DNA of 64,000 bases, taken from Candidatus Woesearchaeota archaeon. Its GTDB lineage: Archaea > Nanobdellota > Nanobdellia > Woesearchaeales > UBA10216. Below the pieces are notes generated by a model that was not told the DNA's origin, made no database searches, and saw only the letters and a program-made list of their open reading frames with translations. Every line of letters begins with the position of its first letter. The stretch's first letter is position 1. The DNA is taken from positions 4,681-68,680 of the forward strand of contig JACPBS010000006.1 in assembly GCA_016180195.1 (NCBI GenBank). Direction: 5' to 3'. Made by a program: the position numbers and the translations under genes. Of this stretch, positions 917 to 56,863 are shown one piece after another.

Positions 917-1428
917 CTCAACTTTTTAACGTGGTTTCTTATTTTGTCAATTTGTTCATCGCTTAGCACTGCAATTGAGTCTTTTGTACTTATGAAAAAC
1001 AGTTTACATTCTTTCTTTATTTCTTCAATAACTTCGCCATCAACAGGCCTGTTTGCGTAATACTGCAGATCAATTCTTGCTTTAAAGGCTTTGCTTATCA
1101 TCTCAAAGTCTTTTGCGCTGTAAAAATCAACCAAATACCTCTTCATAAATTCCAACGAGCAGGAGTGGATTTCGCACTTTATACCGATCCTAGTCATTAA
1201 AGAATAGAGGGAATAATAAAATATGTAATAAGATGTAACTGCAGACCATAATCGGCTGCGATTGAGCCCTGGAAGAATATTTATCGATTCTTCTGCCATC
1301 TTCAAATAAGATCCCGATATGTTTTTATTTGGCTCAATCAGCTGAATGCCATCTTTCTGTTTCAAACACCATTCAATTGAAACCATAGTAATACCTCCAA
1401 ATTTCATTAACAAATTCCTCAACACCAT
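913..1428 (-). CDS. HEPN domain protein (MNT-HEPN pair; true start probably near 1389)
   Basis: [12 protein letters not shown]...KCEIHSC and R-x4-YY motifs typical of archaeal HEPN proteins; coupled to the upstream nucleotidyltransferase. Confidence 0.75.
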
Positions 1429-1954
1429 GTAGCATTATGTGATTTGAAACCATCTCGGAAACCAGCATGTTTTTCCCAATAAGAAGCTGCCGCCATTCCG
1501 TGTTTGAAAAATATTTTATGCTTGCCTTTATGTCGAATTTACCTGCTGCCTCATCATAGTCCATTTCCTTTTTTTCCCCAATAATGAAAATATCCAAATC
1601 TGAGCCTTGTTTTTGGATTCCCTTCGCATAGCTGCCGAAAATTCCAACAACCCTGTCATCATTCGAAAAAAGATTTGCCATAACTCTGTGTTTGCCGAGA
1701 AATAGAATTTTATTCAGAAGCTCAGTAATTATTATGATGTCCCTTATTTCTGAATACTTTGTGTTCAAGCTGTAAAACTTCATCTTTCCTCTAGTCGTAG
1801 ATCTCAGAATCCCTTTTATCTTCAAGTCTTTTAAAACCAAAGCAATGGTTTTTTCACTTAAAGGCGCTTTTCCTTTCAAACCCCTTCCGTGAACTTCCCT
1901 TGCATAATCACCTGAGAATTGGCTTAAAACATGAAAATATTTATCGTGTAACAT
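1373..1954 (-). CDS. Winged-HTH plus minimal nucleotidyltransferase (MNT antitoxin-like)
   Basis: N-terminal HTH-like segment; GSYAKG...SDLD Pol-beta-type motif; ATG at 1954. Confidence 0.8.
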   Translation of the reverse strand: MLHDKYFHVLSQFSGDYAREVHGRGLKGKAPLSEKTIALVLKDLKIKGILRSTTRGKMKFYSLNTKYSEIRDIIIITELLNKILFLGKHRVMANLFSNDDRVVGIFGSYAKGIQKQGSDLDIFIIGEKKEMDYDEAAGKFDIKASIKYFSNTEWRQLLIGKNMLVSEMVSNHIMLHGVEEFVNEIWRYYYGFN

Positions 1955-1972
1955 TTTACACAAATGTGTAAA
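1955..1972. promoter_or_regulatory. Inverted repeat, possible autoregulatory operator of the MNT-HEPN pair
   Basis: TTTACAC-aaat-GTGTAAA immediately upstream of the MNT start codon. Confidence 0.4.
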
Positions 1973-2124
1973 TAATTACATATATAAATGTTTCTACTTT
2001 TAAAAAAATCATCCACTTCTTGTCATTTAATTACAGCAATAGAGTCGTTAGTCTTCATAAAGAATAAAGTATTTGGCAAGTAATTGATATCATGAAACAA
2101 TCAGATTGGCTATTGATTATTTTT

Positions 2125-2570
2125 TTTACAAATAAATTTCGCCTTGGGTTCAAAGCCCCGCCCTTTAGGGCGAAACCCAAATCGTTTTGCGATTGGGCAC
2201 AATTGAGCTTTGCCCAATTTGTGTATTGTGTCAAGAACCCCTGGCTAAAGCCCAGGGTATGTTCTTGAGCACACAAATCAAGCTTTGCTTGATTGTGCCC
2301 ATTTGAGCTATGCTCAAATTGGGTCTCAGAAATTGCTCGTCCTTACTGCGCACTAAAAGTGCCACAGATTACGTCGAGAGCACAAATAAACGCTTGGCGT
2401 TTATTGTGCAATAAACCTTTAGGTTTGGCGTTTATTGTGCAATAAACCTTTAGGTTTATTTGCAATTTCTGACATTCCAAAACCCAAATCACTTTGTGAT
2501 TGGGCCCATTTGAACTCTGTTCGAATTGGGATCCGCCATTGAAGTGAGAGGATAGCTCCGAGCGGCGGAT
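2125..2570. repeat. Mosaic array of palindromic units (REP/BIME-like) with IS200/IS605-end-like hairpins
   Basis: Eight 22-30 nt bulged hairpins in alternating orientation; TTTA/TAAA-loop hairpins at 2159-2172 and 2238-2257; a 31-bp tandem duplication; segments recur at 27003-27205 and 32481-32531. Confidence 0.85.
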
Positions 2571-2606
2571 TTTTGTTACTTGTAGCAGAATTCGTTAAAA
2601 ACAATT

Positions 2607-3863
2607 TCAAGCCAGTAGCCTTCTTATTCTAGTATTCAAACTCTGTTCAGACCTAACAAAAGTCTGGCTTTCATTAAGCAAATTATTAATCTCGGCTAAT
2701 ATATTTGCTTCATCAGTTCGGCCATTGATTGCCTGGTTTAAAAGTTCTATTGCTGAAGGATAGTTGCTTTTATATACATCCCTTATTGCAGCTTCCATTA
2801 TGTTTTGGATACGCCGGTCATCAGGCCCGATTTGGTTTACTGCAGTTTGAATTCTTCTTGATAACTCATCCCTGTTTTGCCTTAAAGTGACTAAAGCCCT
2901 TTGTGCTCTTTCAAGATTGTTATACAATGTTTGGGCTCCCGCTCCTAAGGGGGCTGTTCTGGCCAAACGCCTTAACGCATCTAAACGCCGCATTAAATCC
3001 CTTTCATAATTAAAATCAAGATCCACTATCTGCTGAAGCCTGCTTGTTAAGTCCGCCAATTGTCTGTCAACATCGCTAGTAGTACTTAAATGTCCCAAAA
3101 CAGCAGAAGCCTGCCTTTGAAAACCATCCCTCAGTCTTCTGGCTTCGCCTTCATCCCTTACCTTTTGAAGCTCTTCTATTATCTTCAATAAGTGCCTAAG
3201 CTTTGGTTCGTCCCCATGGATGTTGTTTATATTGTTCCGCAATAAATTCTCTGCTTCTTTAATCCCTTCGTCTTCACGTCGATATACTGTTTGCTCGAGT
3301 TTAGCATCCCTCCTTGCAGCATCCTTTTCTCGATTCTCGTTAACACTTTGCAGCTGAGTTCTATAATCGCCAAATTTGCTTGGCCAAGCCATTCCCAAAC
3401 CTAATTTGCTGCCGCTGAAGCCTATGCCTACCAAGATAAAAAGTATCGCGAATACGCCAGCAAATACGAGTCCACCTTGGGTAAAATCAAGCAAAGCCGC
3501 CACGTTGTTGACAAAGGATGTGGATGTAACTGCAATTCCTGAAAAAGCGATTGCAAACCATGTGATGGCGCCCTTATGGGGGGAATCCTTAAATGGGGGT
3601 ATGCTATTTGCCAAAACATAAAGCACCGCATACAATGCAATCCAAGTAAGAAGAATGACATAAAAAGGAACAGTCTGTGTTGGGAGAGGGAGTCCGGGCG
3701 TGGCATTCCACGGAGGCCAGTTCACTGGCTCGGACAGCATATCTATTAATGACCTTAACATCGGGTTGTTCTGGAAGAATCCGCCTGAAGCTGCAAATAC
3801 ATAATTCACCGAAAGCAAAGAAATAATGATTAGGGATAATGCCTTAATGTATCTCTTATTCAT
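2607..3863 (-). CDS. Hypothetical membrane protein with a long C-terminal coiled coil
   Basis: ATG at 3863 gives a signal-like N-terminus, about four hydrophobic helices, then a heptad-rich charged region. Confidence 0.75.
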   Translation of the reverse strand: MNKRYIKALSLIIISLLSVNYVFAASGGFFQNNPMLRSLIDMLSEPVNWPPWNATPGLPLPTQTVPFYVILLTWIALYAVLYVLANSIPPFKDSPHKGAITWFAIAFSGIAVTSTSFVNNVAALLDFTQGGLVFAGVFAILFILVGIGFSGSKLGLGMAWPSKFGDYRTQLQSVNENREKDAARRDAKLEQTVYRREDEGIKEAENLLRNNINNIHGDEPKLRHLLKIIEELQKVRDEGEARRLRDGFQRQASAVLGHLSTTSDVDRQLADLTSRLQQIVDLDFNYERDLMRRLDALRRLARTAPLGAGAQTLYNNLERAQRALVTLRQNRDELSRRIQTAVNQIGPDDRRIQNIMEAAIRDVYKSNYPSAIELLNQAINGRTDEANILAEINNLLNESQTFVRSEQSLNTRIRRLLA

Positions 3864-3954
3864 TCCATGGCACCACTTTTCATTGATTTTTCCAAAACCA
3901 TATATAAAAACTTTTCTACAAAGTTTTAAATAATACCTTGTTAAGAATTGTCCC

Positions 3955-4380
3955 ATGGCAGTTGCGGAATCAGGCCTTGTAATTGTACCAGCACTTTTTT
4001 TTGGCGCCATAATATCCCTGGCGGAGCTTTTCTTTGTCCATGCAGATGAGCGCGGAATGGGCTGGCTTGGACATGGGCTTCATGCGATACCCGCTACCAT
4101 GGCGTTCACGTTCGCAACAATGAACGTGCCTTTCATCTTGCAATATCTTAACCAGACTGTTACTGTAACATGGCAGATTGAGATGGGAGTGATCGCATTT
4201 GTTTCAATCATTGCAATGCTTAAGGTGAGCGCAGCGGCAGCGATCATTGGAAGGGTTGGCGAGAAATTCCATCACACGCTCATGATTGGCGGACTCATGT
4301 TCGTTTCGCCTTACATATGGAAAGCGATGGGGCCTGCTTTGACCAATATGCTTCCATTTCTTGCTTACGAGATATTTTAA
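3955..4380 (+). CDS. Hypothetical multi-pass membrane protein
   Basis: 141-aa ORF with about four hydrophobic segments, divergent from the 3863 gene. Confidence 0.7.
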   Translation: MAVAESGLVIVPALFFGAIISLAELFFVHADERGMGWLGHGLHAIPATMAFTFATMNVPFILQYLNQTVTVTWQIEMGVIAFVSIIAMLKVSAAAAIIGRVGEKFHHTLMIGGLMFVSPYIWKAMGPALTNMLPFLAYEIF

Positions 4381-4413
4381 AAGTCAGTACTGAATTTTAA
4401 CAAAATATTTAAA

Positions 4414-4430
4414 TATACCTCGGTATACCT
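4414..4430. promoter_or_regulatory. Putative TA operator
   Basis: TATACC-tc-GGTATA inverted repeat (also a TATACCT direct repeat) between a TTTAAATA TATA-like box and the antitoxin start. Confidence 0.5.
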
Positions 4431-4437
4431 GAATATA

Positions 4438-4677
4438 ATGGAAGCTACCACGATTAAGATAAACACATCAACAAAAAGCAAGCTGGACACATTCAGGGAG
4501 TATAAGAATGAGAGCTATGATGAAGTAATAAATAAAGTGATTTTCATAGCTGAAAATTTCAAAAAAAGGATAGAGTTAAGTGAGGAGACAATTGCAGCAA
4601 TTGAACGTGCCAGGGAGCGGATACAAAAAGGCAAATTTCTGACAGAATCAGAAGCCAAAAGAAGGCTAGGACTATAA
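4438..4677 (+). CDS. Antitoxin, RHH/CopG-like N-terminus
   Basis: TTIKIN...TKSKL...ESYDEVI pattern; abuts a RelE-family toxin. Confidence 0.75.
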   Translation: MEATTIKINTSTKSKLDTFREYKNESYDEVINKVIFIAENFKKRIELSEETIAAIERARERIQKGKFLTESEAKRRLGL

Positions 4678-4935
4678 ATGTACGAAGTAATTTTCGATCC
4701 TGAAGCTGTTGAAGCGCTTAATAAGCTTCAGAAATCAGAAAAAGAAAGGATATTCAATAAAATCATGGTATCTAAAGAAAACCCCTTTCATTTCTTTGAA
4801 CGCTTAACCGGCAGAACAGATTATAAGATGAGGGTGGGGGACTACAGAATAATTGCGGATATTGATGCAGGTAAGAGATTAATTCAAGTTACAGTTATTG
4901 GCCACAGAAGGAACATTTATAGGAACCTGGATTAA
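4678..4935 (+). CDS. RelE/ParE-family toxin
   Basis: YKMRVGDYRII...VIGHRRNIY signature. Confidence 0.88.
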   Translation: MYEVIFDPEAVEALNKLQKSEKERIFNKIMVSKENPFHFFERLTGRTDYKMRVGDYRIIADIDAGKRLIQVTVIGHRRNIYRNLD

Positions 4936-5378
4936 TAACTCTCCCCCTGCCTTGAAAGCAACAACTCGATCTCAGTTATGTGCTCCTGCTCCTCCATCAG
5001 CACGTGCCTCACGTCATGCTCTAGAATGAAGTCATAGAATCCCTGCCCTTTTTCCTTTCTCAGCTCCTCAAGGATTTTCCTGTATACCCTGACAGCGTGC
5101 TTCTCATCCTCAAGGTTCTGCATTAGAATTTCTTTCACAGATGACGCTTTGTGAGTCTCAGAAACAGCCATTGACGGAACGCCGCCCAGAAGGCCTATCA
5201 GCTTCCTGAATGTGTCCTGATGCTTCTTTTCGTCCTCAGCTATCTCCTTGAGCCTCGCGATAATAGGCTCTGATATTTCGCCCTCAACTACTTCTGCGTG
5301 GCTTAGGTACTGGACAAAAGCTGCGTGTTCAAGCGCCAACGCCTCATTAAGCAATCCTATTATGGTATCCTTTGACAT
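4932..5378 (-). CDS. Ferritin-like (bacterioferritin-type) di-iron protein
   Basis: ALALEHAAFVQY, EDEKKH, EDEKHA and EEQEH metal-ligand motifs. Confidence 0.85.
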   Translation of the reverse strand: MSKDTIIGLLNEALALEHAAFVQYLSHAEVVEGEISEPIIARLKEIAEDEKKHQDTFRKLIGLLGGVPSMAVSETHKASSVKEILMQNLEDEKHAVRVYRKILEELRKEKGQGFYDFILEHDVRHVLMEEQEHITEIELLLSRQGESY

Positions 5379-5617
5379 TTTAGATAAGCGAGACTATCAA
5401 GTCATTAATAATCGTGGAAAAGTAAGGGTTAAGCATGCCACTCACAAACATGTAAACAACTGCTGCCCCAAGCACAATGCCAATGACAAAACCCTTGAAC
5501 CAGTCACCCCAGCTCAGGACATAGCCCCTTTTTCCCTTCATAACTTTCCAGCAGTATCGTCATATTTAAATCTTTCCCAATCAAAAAATATAAATTTCAG
5601 GCAATCAAGGAGGAGCG

Positions 5618-6448
5618 ATGGGCATAATGCTGAAGGAAAGGAAAACCCGAAGCCACAAGGGAGAGAATGGAAGGGTGTTGGTGGTCGGGGGCAGCATTGA
5701 GTATGCAGGGGCAGTCATACTTGCAGGGATGGCTGCATTCAGGTCCGGGGCAGATATCGTTGTTGTTGCCGCACCTGAGAAAATTGCACTTGCACTGAAT
5801 TTCTGGCCAGACTTCATCACCCTGAAGCTGAAAGGAAGCCATCTTGGGAAAACACATTCCAAAAGAATAATCGAGGCATCCAAGAGATTTGATGCGCTTC
5901 TTGTTGGAAACGGCATGGGTACGAGAAGGGAAAGCATGGACTTTGCAGTTAAGGTTACAAGGGGCTCTGGCTGCAAAAAGATAATAGATGCTGATGCAAT
6001 AAGATCCATAAGGCTCCAGGACGTCAATAATTCCATAATCACGCCTCATATGGAGGAGCTTGAAGTGCTTCTCAGGAACAGCGGGGTAAGGAAAGCAGGG
6101 CTTCAGGGAAAAATAAGCCAAGCTAAGAGGATCCTGGGGGACAACGTTATCCTGCTTAAAGGGAAAACAGACTATATCATCTCAAAAAACAGAACAGAAA
6201 CAAACAATACAGGCAACGCAGGCATGACTGTCGGAGGCACAGGAGATGTGCTTGCCGGGGTATGCGCAGGCCTTGTCGCCCAGGGAAACAGCCTTTTCAA
6301 TAGCGCATGCGCTGCTGCATACATAAATGGCTATGCAGGATACCTGCTTTACAGGAAATACGGCTATGGATATACGGCAACTGACCTGGTTGACAAAATA
6401 GCGGAGATCCTGAAAAAGAAAAGAATTAAAACAAGCTCGAATAAGTGA
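5618..6448 (+). CDS. nnrD: ADP-dependent NAD(P)H-hydrate dehydratase (YjeF C-terminal domain)
   Basis: HKGENGRVLVVGGS, IDADA, ITPH, LLKG and GGTGDVLAG motifs. Confidence 0.93.
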   Translation: MGIMLKERKTRSHKGENGRVLVVGGSIEYAGAVILAGMAAFRSGADIVVVAAPEKIALALNFWPDFITLKLKGSHLGKTHSKRIIEASKRFDALLVGNGMGTRRESMDFAVKVTRGSGCKKIIDADAIRSIRLQDVNNSIITPHMEELEVLLRNSGVRKAGLQGKISQAKRILGDNVILLKGKTDYIISKNRTETNNTGNAGMTVGGTGDVLAGVCAGLVAQGNSLFNSACAAAYINGYAGYLLYRKYGYGYTATDLVDKIAEILKKKRIKTSSNK

Positions 6449-7866
6449 AATGCGTGGCAGAAATAAATCTACTGGAAAAATACAAATTTACCGAGGAAAT
6501 GGCAGAGGAGCACCTCCTTTATGCGCCAAGGAAAACCGGCTTTCCAACGCCCATGTACAGGAACAGGCTGGTTGTTGAATCACAGTCTGACTCTGTTGAA
6601 TCTGCTTACTTCTGGATAGTGGACCATTTAAAGTATGACTGGGGCTATACTGACTTCTACAAGATAACAGACATTTTTGCAGCATCCGAACAGTCAGCTT
6701 TTTTCGGTGTATCTGAGCAAAGGCTGGCAGCTCAGCAGGAAAAGGCAGCAACCTACCTAAGGGGCATAAGCGAGATGGTGAAAGCCCTTTTCCAGATTGT
6801 CAGGGAACTGAGGATAATTGATGAAAGGCTCTCATACTACATAGACTCGTACCAGAAGAGGCCGAATGCGCAAAGCTCAGAAATCACCCTGAAAGGGATA
6901 TGGATAGACCAGGTTGAAGGAGGAGTAAAGAATGCGGCATCAGTTTATGGACTGGCACAAAGCGTTGGCTTCACAATACTGCCTGACCTTTTTTTCCGGG
7001 TCACGGTTGCGGACCCGCTAATGATAGACCAAACCGTTGACCATCTTCAGTTCAATGAAAAGGTAAAAGAAGTTCTAAAAAGAAAGCTGAGGCAGTTCTA
7101 CGAATGGAAAAAAAGGACATACGAGGAAATGTCAACCAGAAGGAAATTCATCATAAAGTACCTCAGGCAGCACTATGAAACAATAAAGCTTTACATGGGA
7201 TGGGTCAAGCCATACTTGAGGAACATAAGGAAGCTTCAGCTCGACCAAAAAAAGCTTGATTCCGCGGAAATGATCACCGCATTTGAAGGGTCAATGGTTG
7301 AGATAGAGGTCCTTGCAAAGAAAGAAAGCCCTGCCTACAGCAAATTCTACCCGTGCATACTCATGCATTTCAAGTACAGGACAAAGCCGCAAATGAGCTT
7401 TGTAGGCGAAGGCTACCAGAGAGGGCCCATACACAAGGGGAAGTTTGACCTTGTAATGAGGGGCTACATATGGACAAATGACCACATAGAGAACTACAGG
7501 AAAATGAAGGAAGAGGAGGACCTGCACCTAATCAGCCTCATAAACGAGTCAATCAAGGAATCAATGGAAGCTCTGGGGGAAGAGCTTAGGCATTACCTGA
7601 TGGAGGGAGGCGAATCATTTGAGCCCCCGAAAAAACAAAAGCCAAGGCCCGTGCCAACAATAATGGATCCATTCAAGGCAATATTCGAGGGTGTGGGTGA
7701 TATAGCAGGCTCTATGGGGATGGGATTGAAAAAGGAAGCGCCAAAGGAGAAAATAGACAAGGTGGCGTTGAAGGACGAGTTTCAGAAAGCAAGCAAGGAC
7801 CTGAAAACAGAGATTTACACTACATATAAAAACTATAAAAAGATGCACGGCATGCTCACATGGTAA
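6445..7866 (+). CDS. Hypothetical protein, 473 aa, helical, function unknown
   Basis: Long ORF with GTGA overlap on the nnrD stop; protein-like composition. Confidence 0.8.
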   Translation: MKCVAEINLLEKYKFTEEMAEEHLLYAPRKTGFPTPMYRNRLVVESQSDSVESAYFWIVDHLKYDWGYTDFYKITDIFAASEQSAFFGVSEQRLAAQQEKAATYLRGISEMVKALFQIVRELRIIDERLSYYIDSYQKRPNAQSSEITLKGIWIDQVEGGVKNAASVYGLAQSVGFTILPDLFFRVTVADPLMIDQTVDHLQFNEKVKEVLKRKLRQFYEWKKRTYEEMSTRRKFIIKYLRQHYETIKLYMGWVKPYLRNIRKLQLDQKKLDSAEMITAFEGSMVEIEVLAKKESPAYSKFYPCILMHFKYRTKPQMSFVGEGYQRGPIHKGKFDLVMRGYIWTNDHIENYRKMKEEEDLHLISLINESIKESMEALGEELRHYLMEGGESFEPPKKQKPRPVPTIMDPFKAIFEGVGDIAGSMGMGLKKEAPKEKIDKVALKDEFQKASKDLKTEIYTTYKNYKKMHGMLTW

Positions 7867-8438
7867 TGCCACTTGAAAAACAGCTAATCGACATGAGCCC
7901 TGCTGAACGGATAAAGCGCCTCCGGGAACTGGAAGAGCAGAAGAAGAAGGAAATAGAGGAGGCGGAACTGCTTCTTAAGCAAGCCATTAATGAGGAGAAA
8001 GATGAAGAGGAGCAGAAAAAACAGATGCCCACTCCGTATTTAAAGGCAGAAAACCCAGACCAGCTGGAATCAATAGAGGCAAAGGTTCTGTGGGCTGCAA
8101 AACGCGGAGTTACATTTCCTGAAAAAAAAGAGGAAGAACGCAGCCATGCCACAACGCATGAAGCCCTCGAGGAATCCGTGCAATCTGCAGAGGCACGTGC
8201 TGGTGAAGGAGTGAATTATGGAGAGCCTCTTAACTCGGCAATGAACAGCCAAAAAGGCATTTCATACCAAAAAAAGGAAGAGAATTACATTTCAGGCTCA
8301 CAGCAAAAATTCTACCAGCACCAAGGGCATCCCGGAGAGGAGCACCATCCGGATTCAGGATATCACACAAGGAAAACATTGCCCGGCCATGAGATGGAAA
8401 CCCAAGATTTTTATAGTAATTCCCGCAAAAAAAAATAA
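7860..8438 (+). CDS. Hypothetical protein: N-terminal coiled coil, His/Gln-rich tail
   Basis: Overlaps the upstream stop and abuts the downstream start. Confidence 0.7.
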   Translation: MVMPLEKQLIDMSPAERIKRLRELEEQKKKEIEEAELLLKQAINEEKDEEEQKKQMPTPYLKAENPDQLESIEAKVLWAAKRGVTFPEKKEEERSHATTHEALEESVQSAEARAGEGVNYGEPLNSAMNSQKGISYQKKEENYISGSQQKFYQHQGHPGEEHHPDSGYHTRKTLPGHEMETQDFYSNSRKKK

Positions 8439-10394
8439 ATGCTCTACCAAAACAACTCATACAGGGGCGCTTATTTCAGTCCGATGGACAGAGGCTATAC
8501 ACCCATACAGGATTCTATAGAAGTTGTCCCCGAGATGGCTGGACTGAGCCCTTCGGACATAGGCATCTCAGCCCCGCCAATGCAAAACCAGCTTGAGGCA
8601 TTAAATGCAAGAATAAGGCAGGGAGCGTCAAGAGTTGAGCTTGGGTTTACAGGAAGAGGAAAAGGGTCAATGGGGCAAAGCTCGACAACACCTGAAATGT
8701 ACGGAATGGAGGAAAGAAGGGATATACGGGAACTGGCCAACCTAAACAAGGTAATACTCTCAACGCACGCAACAACACAAGTAGGTAATCTTTCCGGGCT
8801 AACAGAAGGCGGATTCAATGAAATGGCCAGGGAAATGGCCCTTAACGAGGTAAAAAGAGCCATAGACTTTGCAGCGGACGTGACAGATGGCGGAGCAGTA
8901 GTCGTGCATACAGGCGAATTCCAAAGACCCATATTCGACAGCTACGGGCCTGACTTCATGATGAATCCCGCAGAATCGGACGTAGGACATCAGGCACACC
9001 CGCAAGGAGAAAGGAAAAAAGCGGTATTTAACATCGTGGACACAAGAACAGGCCAGATAATACCGATAAGGACAGACCAGCCAGTTCCGCTCCCTGTATG
9101 GAAAAAAGATGCGCAGGGCAATTACATAAAGGATGAGTACGGGGAAAGGATACCTGAAACAGAGCAGGACCCGAACAACCCCGGAACAGTAAGGTATAAG
9201 ATGTCAACAAGGGAGTGGGACTATTTTGTACAGGAAGCTCAGAAATACAGCAAGGAACACCCTGACCAGTCTCCAAGGAAACCGGAGATGCAGTACTTCA
9301 TCGAGCAGAACGACATGCAAAGGCTCCAGTTCAAGTCACTGTCAAAGTTCTATGGAGGAATAGAGCAGGTTGAAGACACCAAGAAAAACCTCGAGAAAGT
9401 CAACAAAGCCCTGAAATTTTATGAGGAACTGGAAAAAACAGTACCTCAAGATGAACTATGGAAACTAAAGCTTCCTTCAGGAGCACCAAGGGAACTCGCC
9501 GGGCTCATACCGCCGGATGACCCGAGGCTTCCGTCACAAGTGCTGAAGGATATGAAAACGCATTACGAAGGAATGCTGCAGAGAATGATTTACTCCGAGC
9601 TAAGCTATACCCAGCAGGCAAGGGATATTGAGGAGAGGCAAAAGTACGTTGCGCCTATAAAAGAGTACGCAATACAGAAGAGCGCAGACACGATAGCAAG
9701 GGCAGGGCTTTTCGCAATGCAGAAATCAGAGCAGATGAAAACAAAGGAGCCCCTATACATAGCCCCAGAAAACATATTTCCCGAAACCTATGGAGCACAT
9801 CCTGAAGAGCTCAGGCATATTATTAAGGAATCCAGGAAAACAATGTCACAGCAGCTGGAGAAGATGTATGGGTATGACAAGCAGCATGCAGTTGAGCTTT
9901 CGGAGAGGCATATAAAGGCTACATTCGACATAGGGCATGCGTACACATGGCGAAAATATTTCGTGGGCGACCCTAAGGCAAGCATAGCGGAAAATGATGC
10001 CAAGTTCAAGAACTGGCTGTTGAACCAGGTGCAGCAGCTAACAGACGAAGGCATAATAGGACATGTTCACGTTTCAGATAATTTTGGATACGAGGACGAG
10101 CATGTGGACCCTGGAATGGGAAGGGCGCCGATAAAGGAATTCATAGACAAGATCAAGAAAGGCGGAATAAAAAATGTGACAGTTGAGCCAGCACACCAGG
10201 ACTACAGGTCCCTCCTCGGGGCGTGGAGGCACTTTGGAAGCTCCATATACGGAATGTCAAGGCCAATGGGCGATACATGGTCTGATGTATGGAGAGGCTA
10301 TTTCGGCCAGACTGCGCCGCCATACTTCCTATACGGGGAAGCAGCTCCTGACCCTGAACACTGGGTATTGTGGACAGGAACAAGAATGGAATAA
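8439..10394 (+). CDS. Xylose-isomerase/EndoIV-like TIM-barrel metalloprotein with a large helical insertion
   Basis: Metal-ligand motifs STHAT, VHTGE, APEN, TFDIGHA, HVHVSDNFGYEDEH and TVEPAH. Confidence 0.8.
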   Translation: MLYQNNSYRGAYFSPMDRGYTPIQDSIEVVPEMAGLSPSDIGISAPPMQNQLEALNARIRQGASRVELGFTGRGKGSMGQSSTTPEMYGMEERRDIRELANLNKVILSTHATTQVGNLSGLTEGGFNEMAREMALNEVKRAIDFAADVTDGGAVVVHTGEFQRPIFDSYGPDFMMNPAESDVGHQAHPQGERKKAVFNIVDTRTGQIIPIRTDQPVPLPVWKKDAQGNYIKDEYGERIPETEQDPNNPGTVRYKMSTREWDYFVQEAQKYSKEHPDQSPRKPEMQYFIEQNDMQRLQFKSLSKFYGGIEQVEDTKKNLEKVNKALKFYEELEKTVPQDELWKLKLPSGAPRELAGLIPPDDPRLPSQVLKDMKTHYEGMLQRMIYSELSYTQQARDIEERQKYVAPIKEYAIQKSADTIARAGLFAMQKSEQMKTKEPLYIAPENIFPETYGAHPEELRHIIKESRKTMSQQLEKMYGYDKQHAVELSERHIKATFDIGHAYTWRKYFVGDPKASIAENDAKFKNWLLNQVQQLTDEGIIGHVHVSDNFGYEDEHVDPGMGRAPIKEFIDKIKKGGIKNVTVEPAHQDYRSLLGAWRHFGSSIYGMSRPMGDTWSDVWRGYFGQTAPPYFLYGEAAPDPEHWVLWTGTRME

Positions 10395-42943: not shown

Positions 42944-43140
42944 ATTATAAATCTTTTGGAAGATCGTCCAGAAATTCAATTCACAGCTCCAATGAACTGA
43001 CCATCACGTTTTGTGGGTTCCGTTGCTGATAACCTTGCATAAGCAACACTACTTCGCAGTGATTACGAAATTGAAACATTTAAATACTGCCTGATTTTAT
43101 CTTATAAAAATACAGTACATTTTAATGGAGGTTGCTCAAA

Positions 43141-44046
43141 ATGTCACAAATCGTGCAGATAAAATCACCTGTGCTGGCAGCTGTTACAGACCAGACAAGC
43201 TATGTAAAAGCCAGAAATCAAGCTGAAAAACTCTCCAACGAGCATGGTTTAACAGTAGCAGACATGCCAATGGCAATACAAGCTATGACTACTCGTCCTG
43301 AGGTTCGTGAAGCAATCAGACCTGTATGGATTGATACAATCACTGGAGAATATCACGGCCAGCGAGATGGCCGTTCTTATGAAACATGGCACTCTGCAGG
43401 CTCTTTAGCTACTGCAAAAGGCCTGGAAAAGCTATTCAAGCAGGCTGGAGATTACGCTTTCATGCCTATTTCTGATGATGAATGGGTTGCTGTTGGCAAA
43501 GGCAGCTACAATGGTCAGACCGTTGCCAGAGTTCACTTGGAAGATGCAAAGAAAGGCAATGTTCCTGCACCAGGAACTCCTTACACAATCTTTGTCAGAA
43601 TGGACAAGGACAAGCCAACTATCAATGGCAGAGGCCAGTTGGATCATGATACTTTTATGCAGGATGACAGAGTCCTGATGATTACAGGAAGCCCTGACAG
43701 CAGGGAAGCACTGGCTAAAATGCTCTTTGGCAAGAAAGAAGAAGGCGGAGAAGGCTGGAGCAACATTGGCAGCTATCACAGAATTAACGAAGTTGGCTTT
43801 GATGCAAAGCCTAAGGGGCGCCTGGCGTATCTCGACGGCTATTATTATGGCCTCGGTGGCTACTACGACATCTACAATAATGGGCGTTTCGTCGGGGTAG
43901 GCGCCGGAGGCGCAGTTGCGCGCGAAAAATCAGCTTCTCAAAGCATCGTGCAGCCAACTCTCGAGCAGACGCTGGCAGTTATCAATAATCCAGACTTAAA
44001 CAGAGAAGGCATGTTAAAAGCCGTATATAAGCTGTACCTGCAGTAA
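43141..44046 (+). CDS. Probable DGR target protein with a C-terminal variable region
   Basis: GGAGG RBS; GRLAYLDGYYYGLGGYYDIYNNGRFVGV encoded by 18 consecutive NNY codons, followed by a GCGCC-GGA-GGCGC hairpin. Confidence 0.75.
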   Translation: MSQIVQIKSPVLAAVTDQTSYVKARNQAEKLSNEHGLTVADMPMAIQAMTTRPEVREAIRPVWIDTITGEYHGQRDGRSYETWHSAGSLATAKGLEKLFKQAGDYAFMPISDDEWVAVGKGSYNGQTVARVHLEDAKKGNVPAPGTPYTIFVRMDKDKPTINGRGQLDHDTFMQDDRVLMITGSPDSREALAKMLFGKKEEGGEGWSNIGSYHRINEVGFDAKPKGRLAYLDGYYYGLGGYYDIYNNGRFVGVGAGGAVAREKSASQSIVQPTLEQTLAVINNPDLNREGMLKAVYKLYLQ

Positions 44047-44154: not shown

Positions 44155-44311
44155 GCCGCTGTAGCTCAGCCTGGTCAGAGCGCCACGCTCATATTAGTTG
44201 AGCGATGAGACAAAGGTCGATGATTTAACTCTGACTTTGGGCCACGTGGAGCAAAACAGGACTATCCTGTTTTGCACGCAGAGGTCGGGGGTTCAAAGCC
44301 CCTCAGCGGCA
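44155..44311 (+). tRNA. tRNA-Met(CAT), elongator-type, with two introns (44194-44243 at 37/38; 32 nt in the variable loop)
   Basis: Acceptor GCCGCTG/CAGCGGC-A; anticodon arm CCACG-CTCATA^A-CGTGG; T arm GGGGG-TTCAAAG-CCCCT. Confidence 0.85.
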
Positions 44312-56755: not shown

Positions 56756-56863
56756 CGGGCCCACAGGGATTTGAATTCCAGCTTCTTCAGCTTTTCCAGC
56801 TGATAGTGTCCCTGGACCTGTTGGTTAAGAGCCAACCGCTCTACCAGACTAAGCTATGGGCCC
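56756..56863 (-). tRNA. tRNA-Lys(CTT) with a 34-nt intron at 53/54 (56776-56809)
   Basis: Acceptor GGGCCCA/TGGGCCC-G; anticodon arm GTTGG-CTCTTAA-CCAAC; CAGGG^TTCAAAT-CCCTG. Confidence 0.9.

Follow-up and report, generated by a model that had tools for sequence, protein, structure and literature searches.

The gene at positions 43141-44046 of a 64,000-nucleotide stretch of contig JACPBS010000006.1 from a Candidatus Woesearchaeota archaeon (the whole stretch is called the window below) carries the footprint of a diversity-generating retroelement (DGR). Its variable region (VR) differs from a real template repeat (TR), which was found in contigs L007 and L055 and not in the window, at 11 of 25 adenine sites and at 0 of 56 other sites. 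At the level of sequence, this comparison shows that the loop DNA of the gene was written by mutagenic retrohoming, the fitting template being of the L007/L055 type. The archaeon is tiny and of groundwater type, and the product of the gene is a hypervariable binding protein of a kind already known, the AvpA family. It is probably a remote DGR target, rewritten in trans by a DGR located elsewhere in the genome or carried by an infecting virus. An earlier note, made from the letters of the window, had proposed that a DGR variable region bears a footprint of adenine mutagenesis here and that no reverse transcriptase (RT), TR or accessory gene is nearby, and both proposals held. The elements of the gene are as follows (window coordinates).

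43039..43140, + strand, conserved upstream (promoter) region, which moves with the gene and has nucleotide homology to the other copies
43141..44046, + strand, AvpA-family DGR variable protein gene, 301 aa, a single C-type-lectin fold plus C-terminal tail
43815..43895, + strand, VR of 81 nt, homologous to the L007/L055 TR
43828..43881, + strand, 18 NNY codons in the frame of open reading frame (ORF) 43141-44046
43882..43899, + strand, invariant G+C-rich 3' end of the VR, GGGCGTTTCGTCGG, common to the TR, encoding GRFVGV and resembling an initiation of mutagenic homing (IMH) site
43901..43913, + strand, inverted repeat GCGCC-GGA-GGCGC, a putative target-recognition hairpin/cruciform, present in VRs and not in TRs
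43914..44043, + strand, C-terminal extension past VR and hairpin (residues ~259-301), carrying the module IVQPTLEQTLAVINNPDLNREGM..AV..LY

The variable region and its template repeat

The NNY run reads TAT CTC GAC GGC TAT TAT TAT GGC CTC GGT GGC TAC TAC GAC ATC TAC AAT AAT, with G-R-L-A before it and G-R-F-V-G-V (43882-43899) after it. A second reading of the sequence confirmed the 18 consecutive codons, the GRL and GRFVGV brackets and the inverted repeat (GCGCC 43901-43905, GGA 43906-43908, GGCGC 43909-43913) as first described. This run is the longest among the 75 ORFs of the window, the second longest having 15 codons. With a window-wide NNY fraction of 0.48, 0.04 runs of such length would be expected in 18,617 codons. 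The G+C content is 58% in 43810-43930 vs 45% window-wide, and adenine makes up 18% of the VR vs 30% of the gene.

A TR was predicted from the pattern of the VR, and a sequence 96.6% identical to it was found in L007. It lies some 190 bp past the stop codon of the L007 target gene, which is itself 86.6% identical to the window gene. This L007-type TR (CTCAACAACAATAATAATGGCCTCGATGGCAACAACAACATCAACAATAATGGGCGTTTCGTCGGAATAGTCAAG) reads, in codons, CTC AAC AAC AAT AAT AAT GGC CTC GAT GGC AAC AAC AAC ATC AAC AAT AAT GGG CGT TTC GTC GG in both L007 and L055, and the codons opposite the NNY run are TAT CTC AAC AAC AAT AAT AAT GGC CTC GAT GGC AAC AAC AAC ATC AAC AAT AAT. The 25 template adenines correspond to window positions 43829, 43834/35, 43837/38, 43840/41, 43843/44, 43846/47, 43856, 43861/62, 43864/65, 43867/68, 43870, 43873/74, 43876/77 and 43879/80. 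Over the 81 nt compared, the substituted template adenines lie at 43834, 43837, 43838, 43840, 43843, 43846, 43856, 43861, 43864, 43867 and 43873. When the GGAAT/GGGGT boundary is counted, 13 of 27 adenine sites and 0 of 57 others differ (Fisher p=3e-8), and the VR of L007 gives the same counts as the window VR against the L007 TR. The suggestion that most codons of the run derive from AAY was correct in part: 11 of the 18 TR codons are AAY, and nine of them, as well as one GAT (GAT->GGT), differ in the window, but TAT, CTC, GGC, CTC, GGC and ATC are encoded by the template and unchanged. The TR is estimated to allow ~5e14 protein variants.

The fit is specific to this template type. The TRs of the DGRs in L052, L053 and L054 depart from that of L007 at many non-adenine sites, and the window VR has 11, 13 and 19 non-adenine mismatches against them, respectively, vs 0 against the L007 type. 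Each VR linked in cis to a TR likewise fits its own TR alone, with 0-1 non-adenine mismatches; L054 has two VRs, of which one had been aligned out of register and does not enter these counts. The earlier note had also asked for a copy differing at adenines alone and lying beside an RT. Such a copy exists in L007 and L055, but not in the 64-kb window. A pattern scan of a collection of genome contigs returned four VRs and no TR. The IMG/VR viral contigs held no match to the VR/TR pattern, to the exact TR or to the target family, and the RT relatives found there were only 37-42% identical.

The same codon pattern extends through the family. In 46 homologues all positions are conserved save the stretch L.....GL.G...I...GRF, which varies even between proteins 89% identical overall. 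The adenine-free codons of this stretch (GGC CTC; GGG CGT TTC GTC GGG GT) do not vary between genomes, not even at synonymous sites, while in the variable codons third positions are conserved and positions 1-2 vary, the opposite of ordinary divergence. As a separate observation, the sequence ..GKLGLDGFNDGLNLLSDVYYSGR.. around 1247-1303 (+) of L019 resembles a distant VR; it came from a Y-rich pattern scan of metagenome contigs in which 35 of 36 matched loci were high-GC low-complexity DNA.

Probable recency of the rewriting

Between the window gene and L007, third codon positions are identical at 28 of 28 sites in the VR vs 190 of 273 elsewhere in the gene (p=9e-5), and positions 1-2 at 46 of 56 sites in the VR vs 510 of 546 elsewhere. 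Against the genes of L007, L055 and L048, no non-adenine mismatch occurs from 43811 to 43935, whereas the 60 nt before carry 7-13. This mismatch-free zone begins within four bases of the start of TR homology at 43815. The window does not differ from the active viral copies in the IMH-like end, in the hairpin or in the 20 nt that follow. From these data we infer that the rewriting came long after the gene had split from the viral copy, and that an L007-type DGR was recently present together with the window chromosome. The target would also remain competent, with its cis elements for homing intact.

Virus-borne and other DGRs linked in cis

In L007, the target is accompanied by a divergently oriented RT of 572 aa, which has RVT_1 and HTH_40 domains and the motifs LGNLTSQ and YVDDF. 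At L007 3243-3393 (-) and at L053 8453-8606 (-), an Rfam RT-16 RNA (RF03019, 80-82 bits) lies immediately against the 5' end of the TR and appears to be a structured leader of the DGR template RNA in these two elements. Because L007 has a portal gene (Pfam Portal_Mu), it is taken as a head-tailed archaeal virus or provirus; its terminase-like and protease/scaffold-like ORFs were recognized by eye only, with no Pfam match. L055 comes from a separate sequencing run; over 4.7 kb it shares 96% identity with L007, and it carries an RT and an 86-88% identical target. In both of these L007-type TR loci the machinery is flanked, within a head-tailed archaeal virus, by the portal gene on one side and by ORFs downstream on the other. 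Since L055 and L007 have an identical TR and different VRs, their DGR is active.

Three further loci carry cis-linked DGRs of the family. L053 is a 27.6-kb Woesearchaeota virus contig, and L054 is a provirus with an RT 81% identical to that of L007. In L052, an RT, two tandem AvpA-like targets and a TR (1112-9743) lie beside TraC/VirB4-like, TrbL-like and Abi_alpha genes, a gene content that marks L052 as a conjugative or integrative element rather than a virus. Proteins P0053, P0245 and P0246, whose locus L052 has RT and TR in cis, are identical across 308 aa apart from 10 VR columns. As judged from such alignments, the AvpA-like family is actively diversified.

Between RT and target, four of these DGRs share a 64-65-aa ORF (MxDSKKEIIERSVKQLNTYGNGIGVLVTREAKAIGLKSGSKVQV..) that is 78-100% conserved. 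The ORF also adjoins the solitary target of L002, with 83% identity over 53 aa. Its positions are the following.

L007 4469-4663 (-), 65-aa ORF between RT and target
L053 9705-9896, 64-65-aa ORF
L054 9692-9886, 64-65-aa ORF
L055 2307-2504, 64-65-aa ORF
L002 9717-9875, 64-65-aa ORF beside the solitary target

This ORF is a candidate accessory factor that may stand in for Avd. A label as AbrB/SpoVT-like protein was considered and dropped for want of Pfam support. An RT of the same family, 79% identical to that of L007, was also seen in L056 (302-5256), beside a Topo VI-B gene containing an intein with a LAGLIDADG domain.

Homing end and hairpin

The VR and the TR diverge directly after ...GTCGG. 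Past the shared GGGCGTTTCGTCGG the VR has GGTA and the TR AATA, the VR running on as GGTAGGCGCCGGAGGCGC and the TR as AATAGTCAAGCTT. This 3' end of the VR is identical, synonymous sites included, in the window, L001, L002, L004, L006, L007, L048, L050 and L055.

The inverted repeat that follows is paired in 35 of 35 cells across 7 distinct VR 3' ends, with one compensatory change from C-G to A-T (L052, L053). In L002 and L054 a 1-nt deletion has shifted the reading frame and the hairpin DNA is retained. Because the hairpin survives this frameshift and is paired throughout, with a compensatory change, the constraint acts on the nucleic acid and not on the protein. The hairpin is lost in the solitary copies L004 and L050 and reduced to G-T pairs in L001. 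Taken alone, its folding energy in the window is not significant (z=-1.0).

Two side observations concern this region. The 1-nt deletion lies directly after GGGGTA (L002 10760-10790; L054 around 4025 and 6892, -), where ..VGVAPEAQ.. replaces ..VGVGAGGAV.. while the GCGCCGGAGGCGC DNA is still kept; it is the source of two C-terminal protein variants in the family. The protein encoded at L006 259-413 (-) differs in its N-terminal sequence (..DGTWGNFHLFEGGHPNQVKEHLVYL..), has the same VR cassette and hairpin and ends right after the hairpin. VR, IMH-like end and hairpin seem, from such arrangements, to move as a unit between protein scaffolds.

Protein family, fold and tail

The 301-aa protein has no match in Pfam or NCBIfam. 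Ninety-one close homologues were found; all those with a source name come from metagenome-assembled genomes of Woesearchaeota or Nanoarchaeota and are labelled hypothetical. An exhaustive profile search gave 160 family clusters at 50% identity. A profile of 46 homologues matched one solved structure, AvpA (5IOO_A, E=3.2e-6), profile positions 222-301 being aligned with chain residues 176-255, that is, VR and C-terminal tail. The AlphaFold2 (AF2) model of the window protein (pLDDT 88.5, pTM 0.81) extended this match to the whole fold: its top Foldseek match was again 5ioo_A (E=7.3e-10, probability 1.00, target-normalised TM 0.76, 255 aligned columns). The weaker matches below it included classical C-type lectins, and a fold search of BFVD returned none. 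The C-type-lectin fold that had been expected from sequence was thereby confirmed by structure prediction. The proposed uncharacterised N-terminal domain was not: according to the 5IOO profile and Foldseek there is no separate domain, and the protein up to about residue 253 is modelled as one AvpA-type C-type-lectin fold, followed by the tail. The fold displays a 16-residue loop, DGYYYGLGGYYDIYNN, which is a putative ligand-binding surface.

The extension after the VR is present as described, with 48 residues after GRFVGV, but it is not novel. Handa et al. (2016, PMC5006420) reported for AvpA a short internal VR and a 46-residue extension with two predicted helices and hairpin-coding DNA inside it, and named GXXVVVYAH and HPXXXPFXG as conserved motifs. 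The window extension aligns to the AvpA tail (5IOO residues ~210-255), and in the AF2 model it consists of a disordered linker (257-269) and helices 274-281 and 288-300. The module IVQPTLEQTLAVINNPDLNREGM..AV..LY (window 43950-44043) was also seen on proteins P0087-P0091, whose N-terminal parts are unrelated. P0087-P0089 have a VR-like stretch of their own; P0090 and P0091 have the tail alone in common and are without Pfam match. The module looks like a portable docking or anchoring module.

Proposed rewriting in trans and its alternatives

The window contains a target without machinery, as the following searches of it indicate. Blastn at word size 7 with the VR, the predicted all-adenine TR and the real TR returned the VR itself alone and no second copy in the window. 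Tblastn with the cognate-type RT gave no match at E<=10, and the Pfam scan of the 30 largest window ORFs no RVT_1. The 3'-flank motif of the TR was not found in the window even with 3 mismatches allowed, nor the RT-16 RNA at E<=1, and for the 65-aa accessory ORF there was no relative in the window below a tblastn E of 2.6 (two 13-14-aa matches only).

The mechanism that we propose is as follows. Reverse transcription of an RNA copy of the template repeat places random bases opposite the adenines of the template, and the resulting cDNA takes the place of the VR at 43815-43895. Its 3' bound would be set by the shared G+C-rich end GGGCGTTTCGTCGG, aided by the putative hairpin downstream. The fitting template is of the L007/L055 type, and the machinery, which is not in the window, comprises the RT with HTH_40 domain, the RT-16 leader RNA joined to the TR and the 65-aa ORF. 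The rewriting DGR would be encoded elsewhere in the genome, most simply in an integrated provirus, or be carried by an infecting virus. The rewriting would be recent relative to the divergence of the gene, which would have retained every cis element for homing.

Homologues of the window gene also occur as solitary copies on other chromosomes. L001, L002, L048, L049 and L050 are chromosomal contigs of 36-250 kb with unrelated neighbourhoods, and no RT or TR was found within 7-10 kb on either side of their targets. Homology among the solitary copies covers the gene and up to ~100 bp upstream. Some genomes (VJI75, HYX10, HY772) have 2-3 paralogous targets. In the cluster of P0053, the sole 90% cluster confirmed to lie beside RT and TR (L052), variation occurs in the VR only, and in that of P0079, whose contig was matched by length and source to one carrying an RT, mainly in the VR.

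Several observations weigh against rewriting in trans. The 90% cluster of the window protein has a single member. In the clusters of P0039, P0055, P0070 and P0031, which lie on long contigs, the VR is invariant and the variation falls in other columns, so that solitary copies may be mostly static. By these patterns, some targets of the family are active and others quiescent. Wu et al. (2018, PMC5758913) argue that a DGR carried by a phage should not be expected to retain remote targets in the cell. The 5-bp stem and 3-nt loop of the hairpin are smaller than the 7-10-bp stem and GRNA loop of phages (PMC3240598), its role in archaea being putative. The perfect match at non-adenine sites could also be explained by recombination with a viral gene copy. 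Finally, the window is 64 kb of a 128.7-kb contig, and the searches for machinery cover those 64 kb.

The alternative that survives best is a stranded target: what is left of a DGR cassette that entered the chromosome as a copy from a virus or mobile element, lacking RT and TR, and that is diversified no longer. The VR would then be a frozen record, kept as a useful Tyr/Gly-rich loop. It would account for the lack of RT, TR, RT-16 RNA and accessory ORF in 64 kb, for the finding that 6 of 6 chromosomal loci (the window and the five above) are solitary and non-syntenic, for the loss of the hairpin in L050 and L004 and for the static VRs of several clusters. L002, with only the 65-aa ORF beside its target, looks like such a cassette fragment. 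AvpA homologues outside DGRs were also listed by Handa et al. (PMC5006420), who noted in 2016 AvpA-like proteins of which some occur in Woesearchaeota genomes without a DGR. However, stranding at the 13% divergence of the gene predicts about 8 third-position changes in 28 and about 7 non-adenine changes in the VR, and none was observed. The stranding would therefore have to be very recent. Also speaking against it is the identity with active viral copies in the IMH-like end, in the hairpin and in the 20 nt after it. We regard stranding as a serious contender, though an unlikely one. Between diversification in trans, possibly by a virus-borne DGR, and stranding, we lean towards the former or towards a stranding that was recent.

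A second alternative, which we consider quite improbable, is that homologous recombination or gene conversion brought in the VR from an already diversified viral copy, without retrohoming in the cell of the window. The VRs of the window and L055 (around 1444-1514, - strand) share 7 identical adenine substitutions (GAC GGC TAT TAT and TAC TAC, window 43834-43866), where ~2 would be expected (p about 0.002, a rough binomial estimate). These could reflect convergent selection for Tyr or common VR ancestry; they are mostly A->T changes giving Tyr, which are common in all VRs. The mismatch-free stretch moreover extends ~40 nt beyond the 3' end of TR homology, to 43935, as an imported tract might, but conservation downstream is also expected of a functional target-recognition element. 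At the 5' edge, recombination would have had no reason to stop at 43811, so close to the start of TR homology.

The reading that the loop is an ordinary surface loop rich in Tyr and Gly, with NNY codons arising from codon usage and fast positive selection, is already refuted: although such loops occur in many binding proteins and the hairpin energy is not significant alone, a real TR differs from the VR at adenines only, the codon-position pattern reverses that of ordinary evolution, in homologous loci the TR adjoins an RT-16 RNA and a reverse transcriptase with RVT_1, and the protein has the AvpA fold.

Rewriting in trans has a narrower form that we hold tentatively and think rather doubtful, in which a virus-borne DGR rewrites a gene of the host chromosome and solitary AvpA-like genes, dispersed over non-syntenic sites of Woesearchaeota chromosomes (the window, L048 and others), persist as remote targets for the DGR of head-tailed viruses or proviruses of L007 type. 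If this is true, a host binding protein would be re-diversified whenever the virus is present, and virus and host would share one hypervariable ligand-binding repertoire. Such a pairing of viral DGR and host target would contradict the published expectation (PMC5758913) cited above.

Comparison with known systems

The closest known relative is AvpA of Nanoarchaeota (5IOO; PMC5006420). Besides the fold of the whole protein, the two agree in the sequence of VR and tail (LGRLLFVGDYCNNGLIGNYGIGNYARFVGV in the window vs GRLAYLDGYYYGLGGYYDIYNNGRFVGV), an internal VR of ~27 aa, a conserved aromatic residue before the loop, a two-helix extension of 46-48 aa and a hairpin inside the ORF. They differ in that identity outside VR and tail is 17% and that the window protein has 301 aa vs 256 in AvpA. 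AvpA also adjoins its RT and TR, whereas the window copy is solitary and its closest cis-linked relatives are viral rather than cellular.

The DGR of Treponema denticola, with seven dispersed targets (PMC5758913), resembles the window in that targets without an adjacent RT show only A-to-N differences from the TR. Unlike that system, the matching TRs found for the window target lie only on contigs of head-tailed viruses. In BPP-1, trans action of RT, accessory protein and TR was demonstrated experimentally (Wu et al. 2018, PMC5758913). BPP-1 (Mtd; Guo et al. 2011, PMC3240598) shares with the window a target of C-type-lectin fold, AAY-rich TR codons, a G+C-rich 3' end common to VR and TR, and a G+C-rich inverted repeat present in the VR only, a few bases past the VR/TR divergence. 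The hairpin of the window has a 5-bp stem and a 3-nt GGA loop, in contrast to a 7-10-bp stem and a 4-nt GRNA loop in BPP-1. The DGRs of the window family further lack an Avd homologue, a 65-aa ORF without Pfam match being found in its place, and have an RT with C-terminal HTH_40, an RT-16 RNA before the TR and another C-type-lectin-fold subclass.

These results allow a family from DPANN archaea that is annotated as 'hypothetical protein' and comprises ~160 clusters at the 50% identity level to be named as AvpA-type DGR variable proteins, whose VR, template type, homing end and hairpin are defined to the base. In the window and L048, a solitary gene with ~100 bp of promoter has a VR that is base-perfect, save for adenines, against a template seen only in viral contigs. 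If this link holds within one cell, a viral retroelement would diversify a host gene, and the link would provide a handle on virus-host pairing in uncultivated ultra-small archaea.

Genomic setting of the window gene

The window is an archaeal chromosome of Woesearchaeota type (DPANN), in which the Pfam scan found genes for GyrB, class I LysRS, SRP54, an archaeal-type FBPase and mevalonate-pathway enzymes. Nucleotide homology of the gene to the viral copies L007/L055 (86-88%) begins at 43039, that to other chromosomal copies between 43044 and 43127, and among all gene copies it stops near the stop codon in every case.

Two tRNA genes were found with Rfam.

44155-44311, + strand, intron-containing tRNA gene, 157 nt overall, 109 bp downstream of the target
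56756-56863, - strand, intron-containing tRNA gene, 108 nt overall

ARAGORN reported no tRNA in the window, having missed these genes because of their introns. Integration beside a tRNA gene was considered as a shared theme and rejected, as the other chromosomal loci have no adjoining tRNA gene, the nearest being 4-6 kb away (L049, L050). Upstream, the target gene is neighboured by genes for an ArsR-type regulator, a SHOCT protein and a DUF302 protein, and immediately downstream lie genes for a type IV pilus-like ATPase and membrane proteins.

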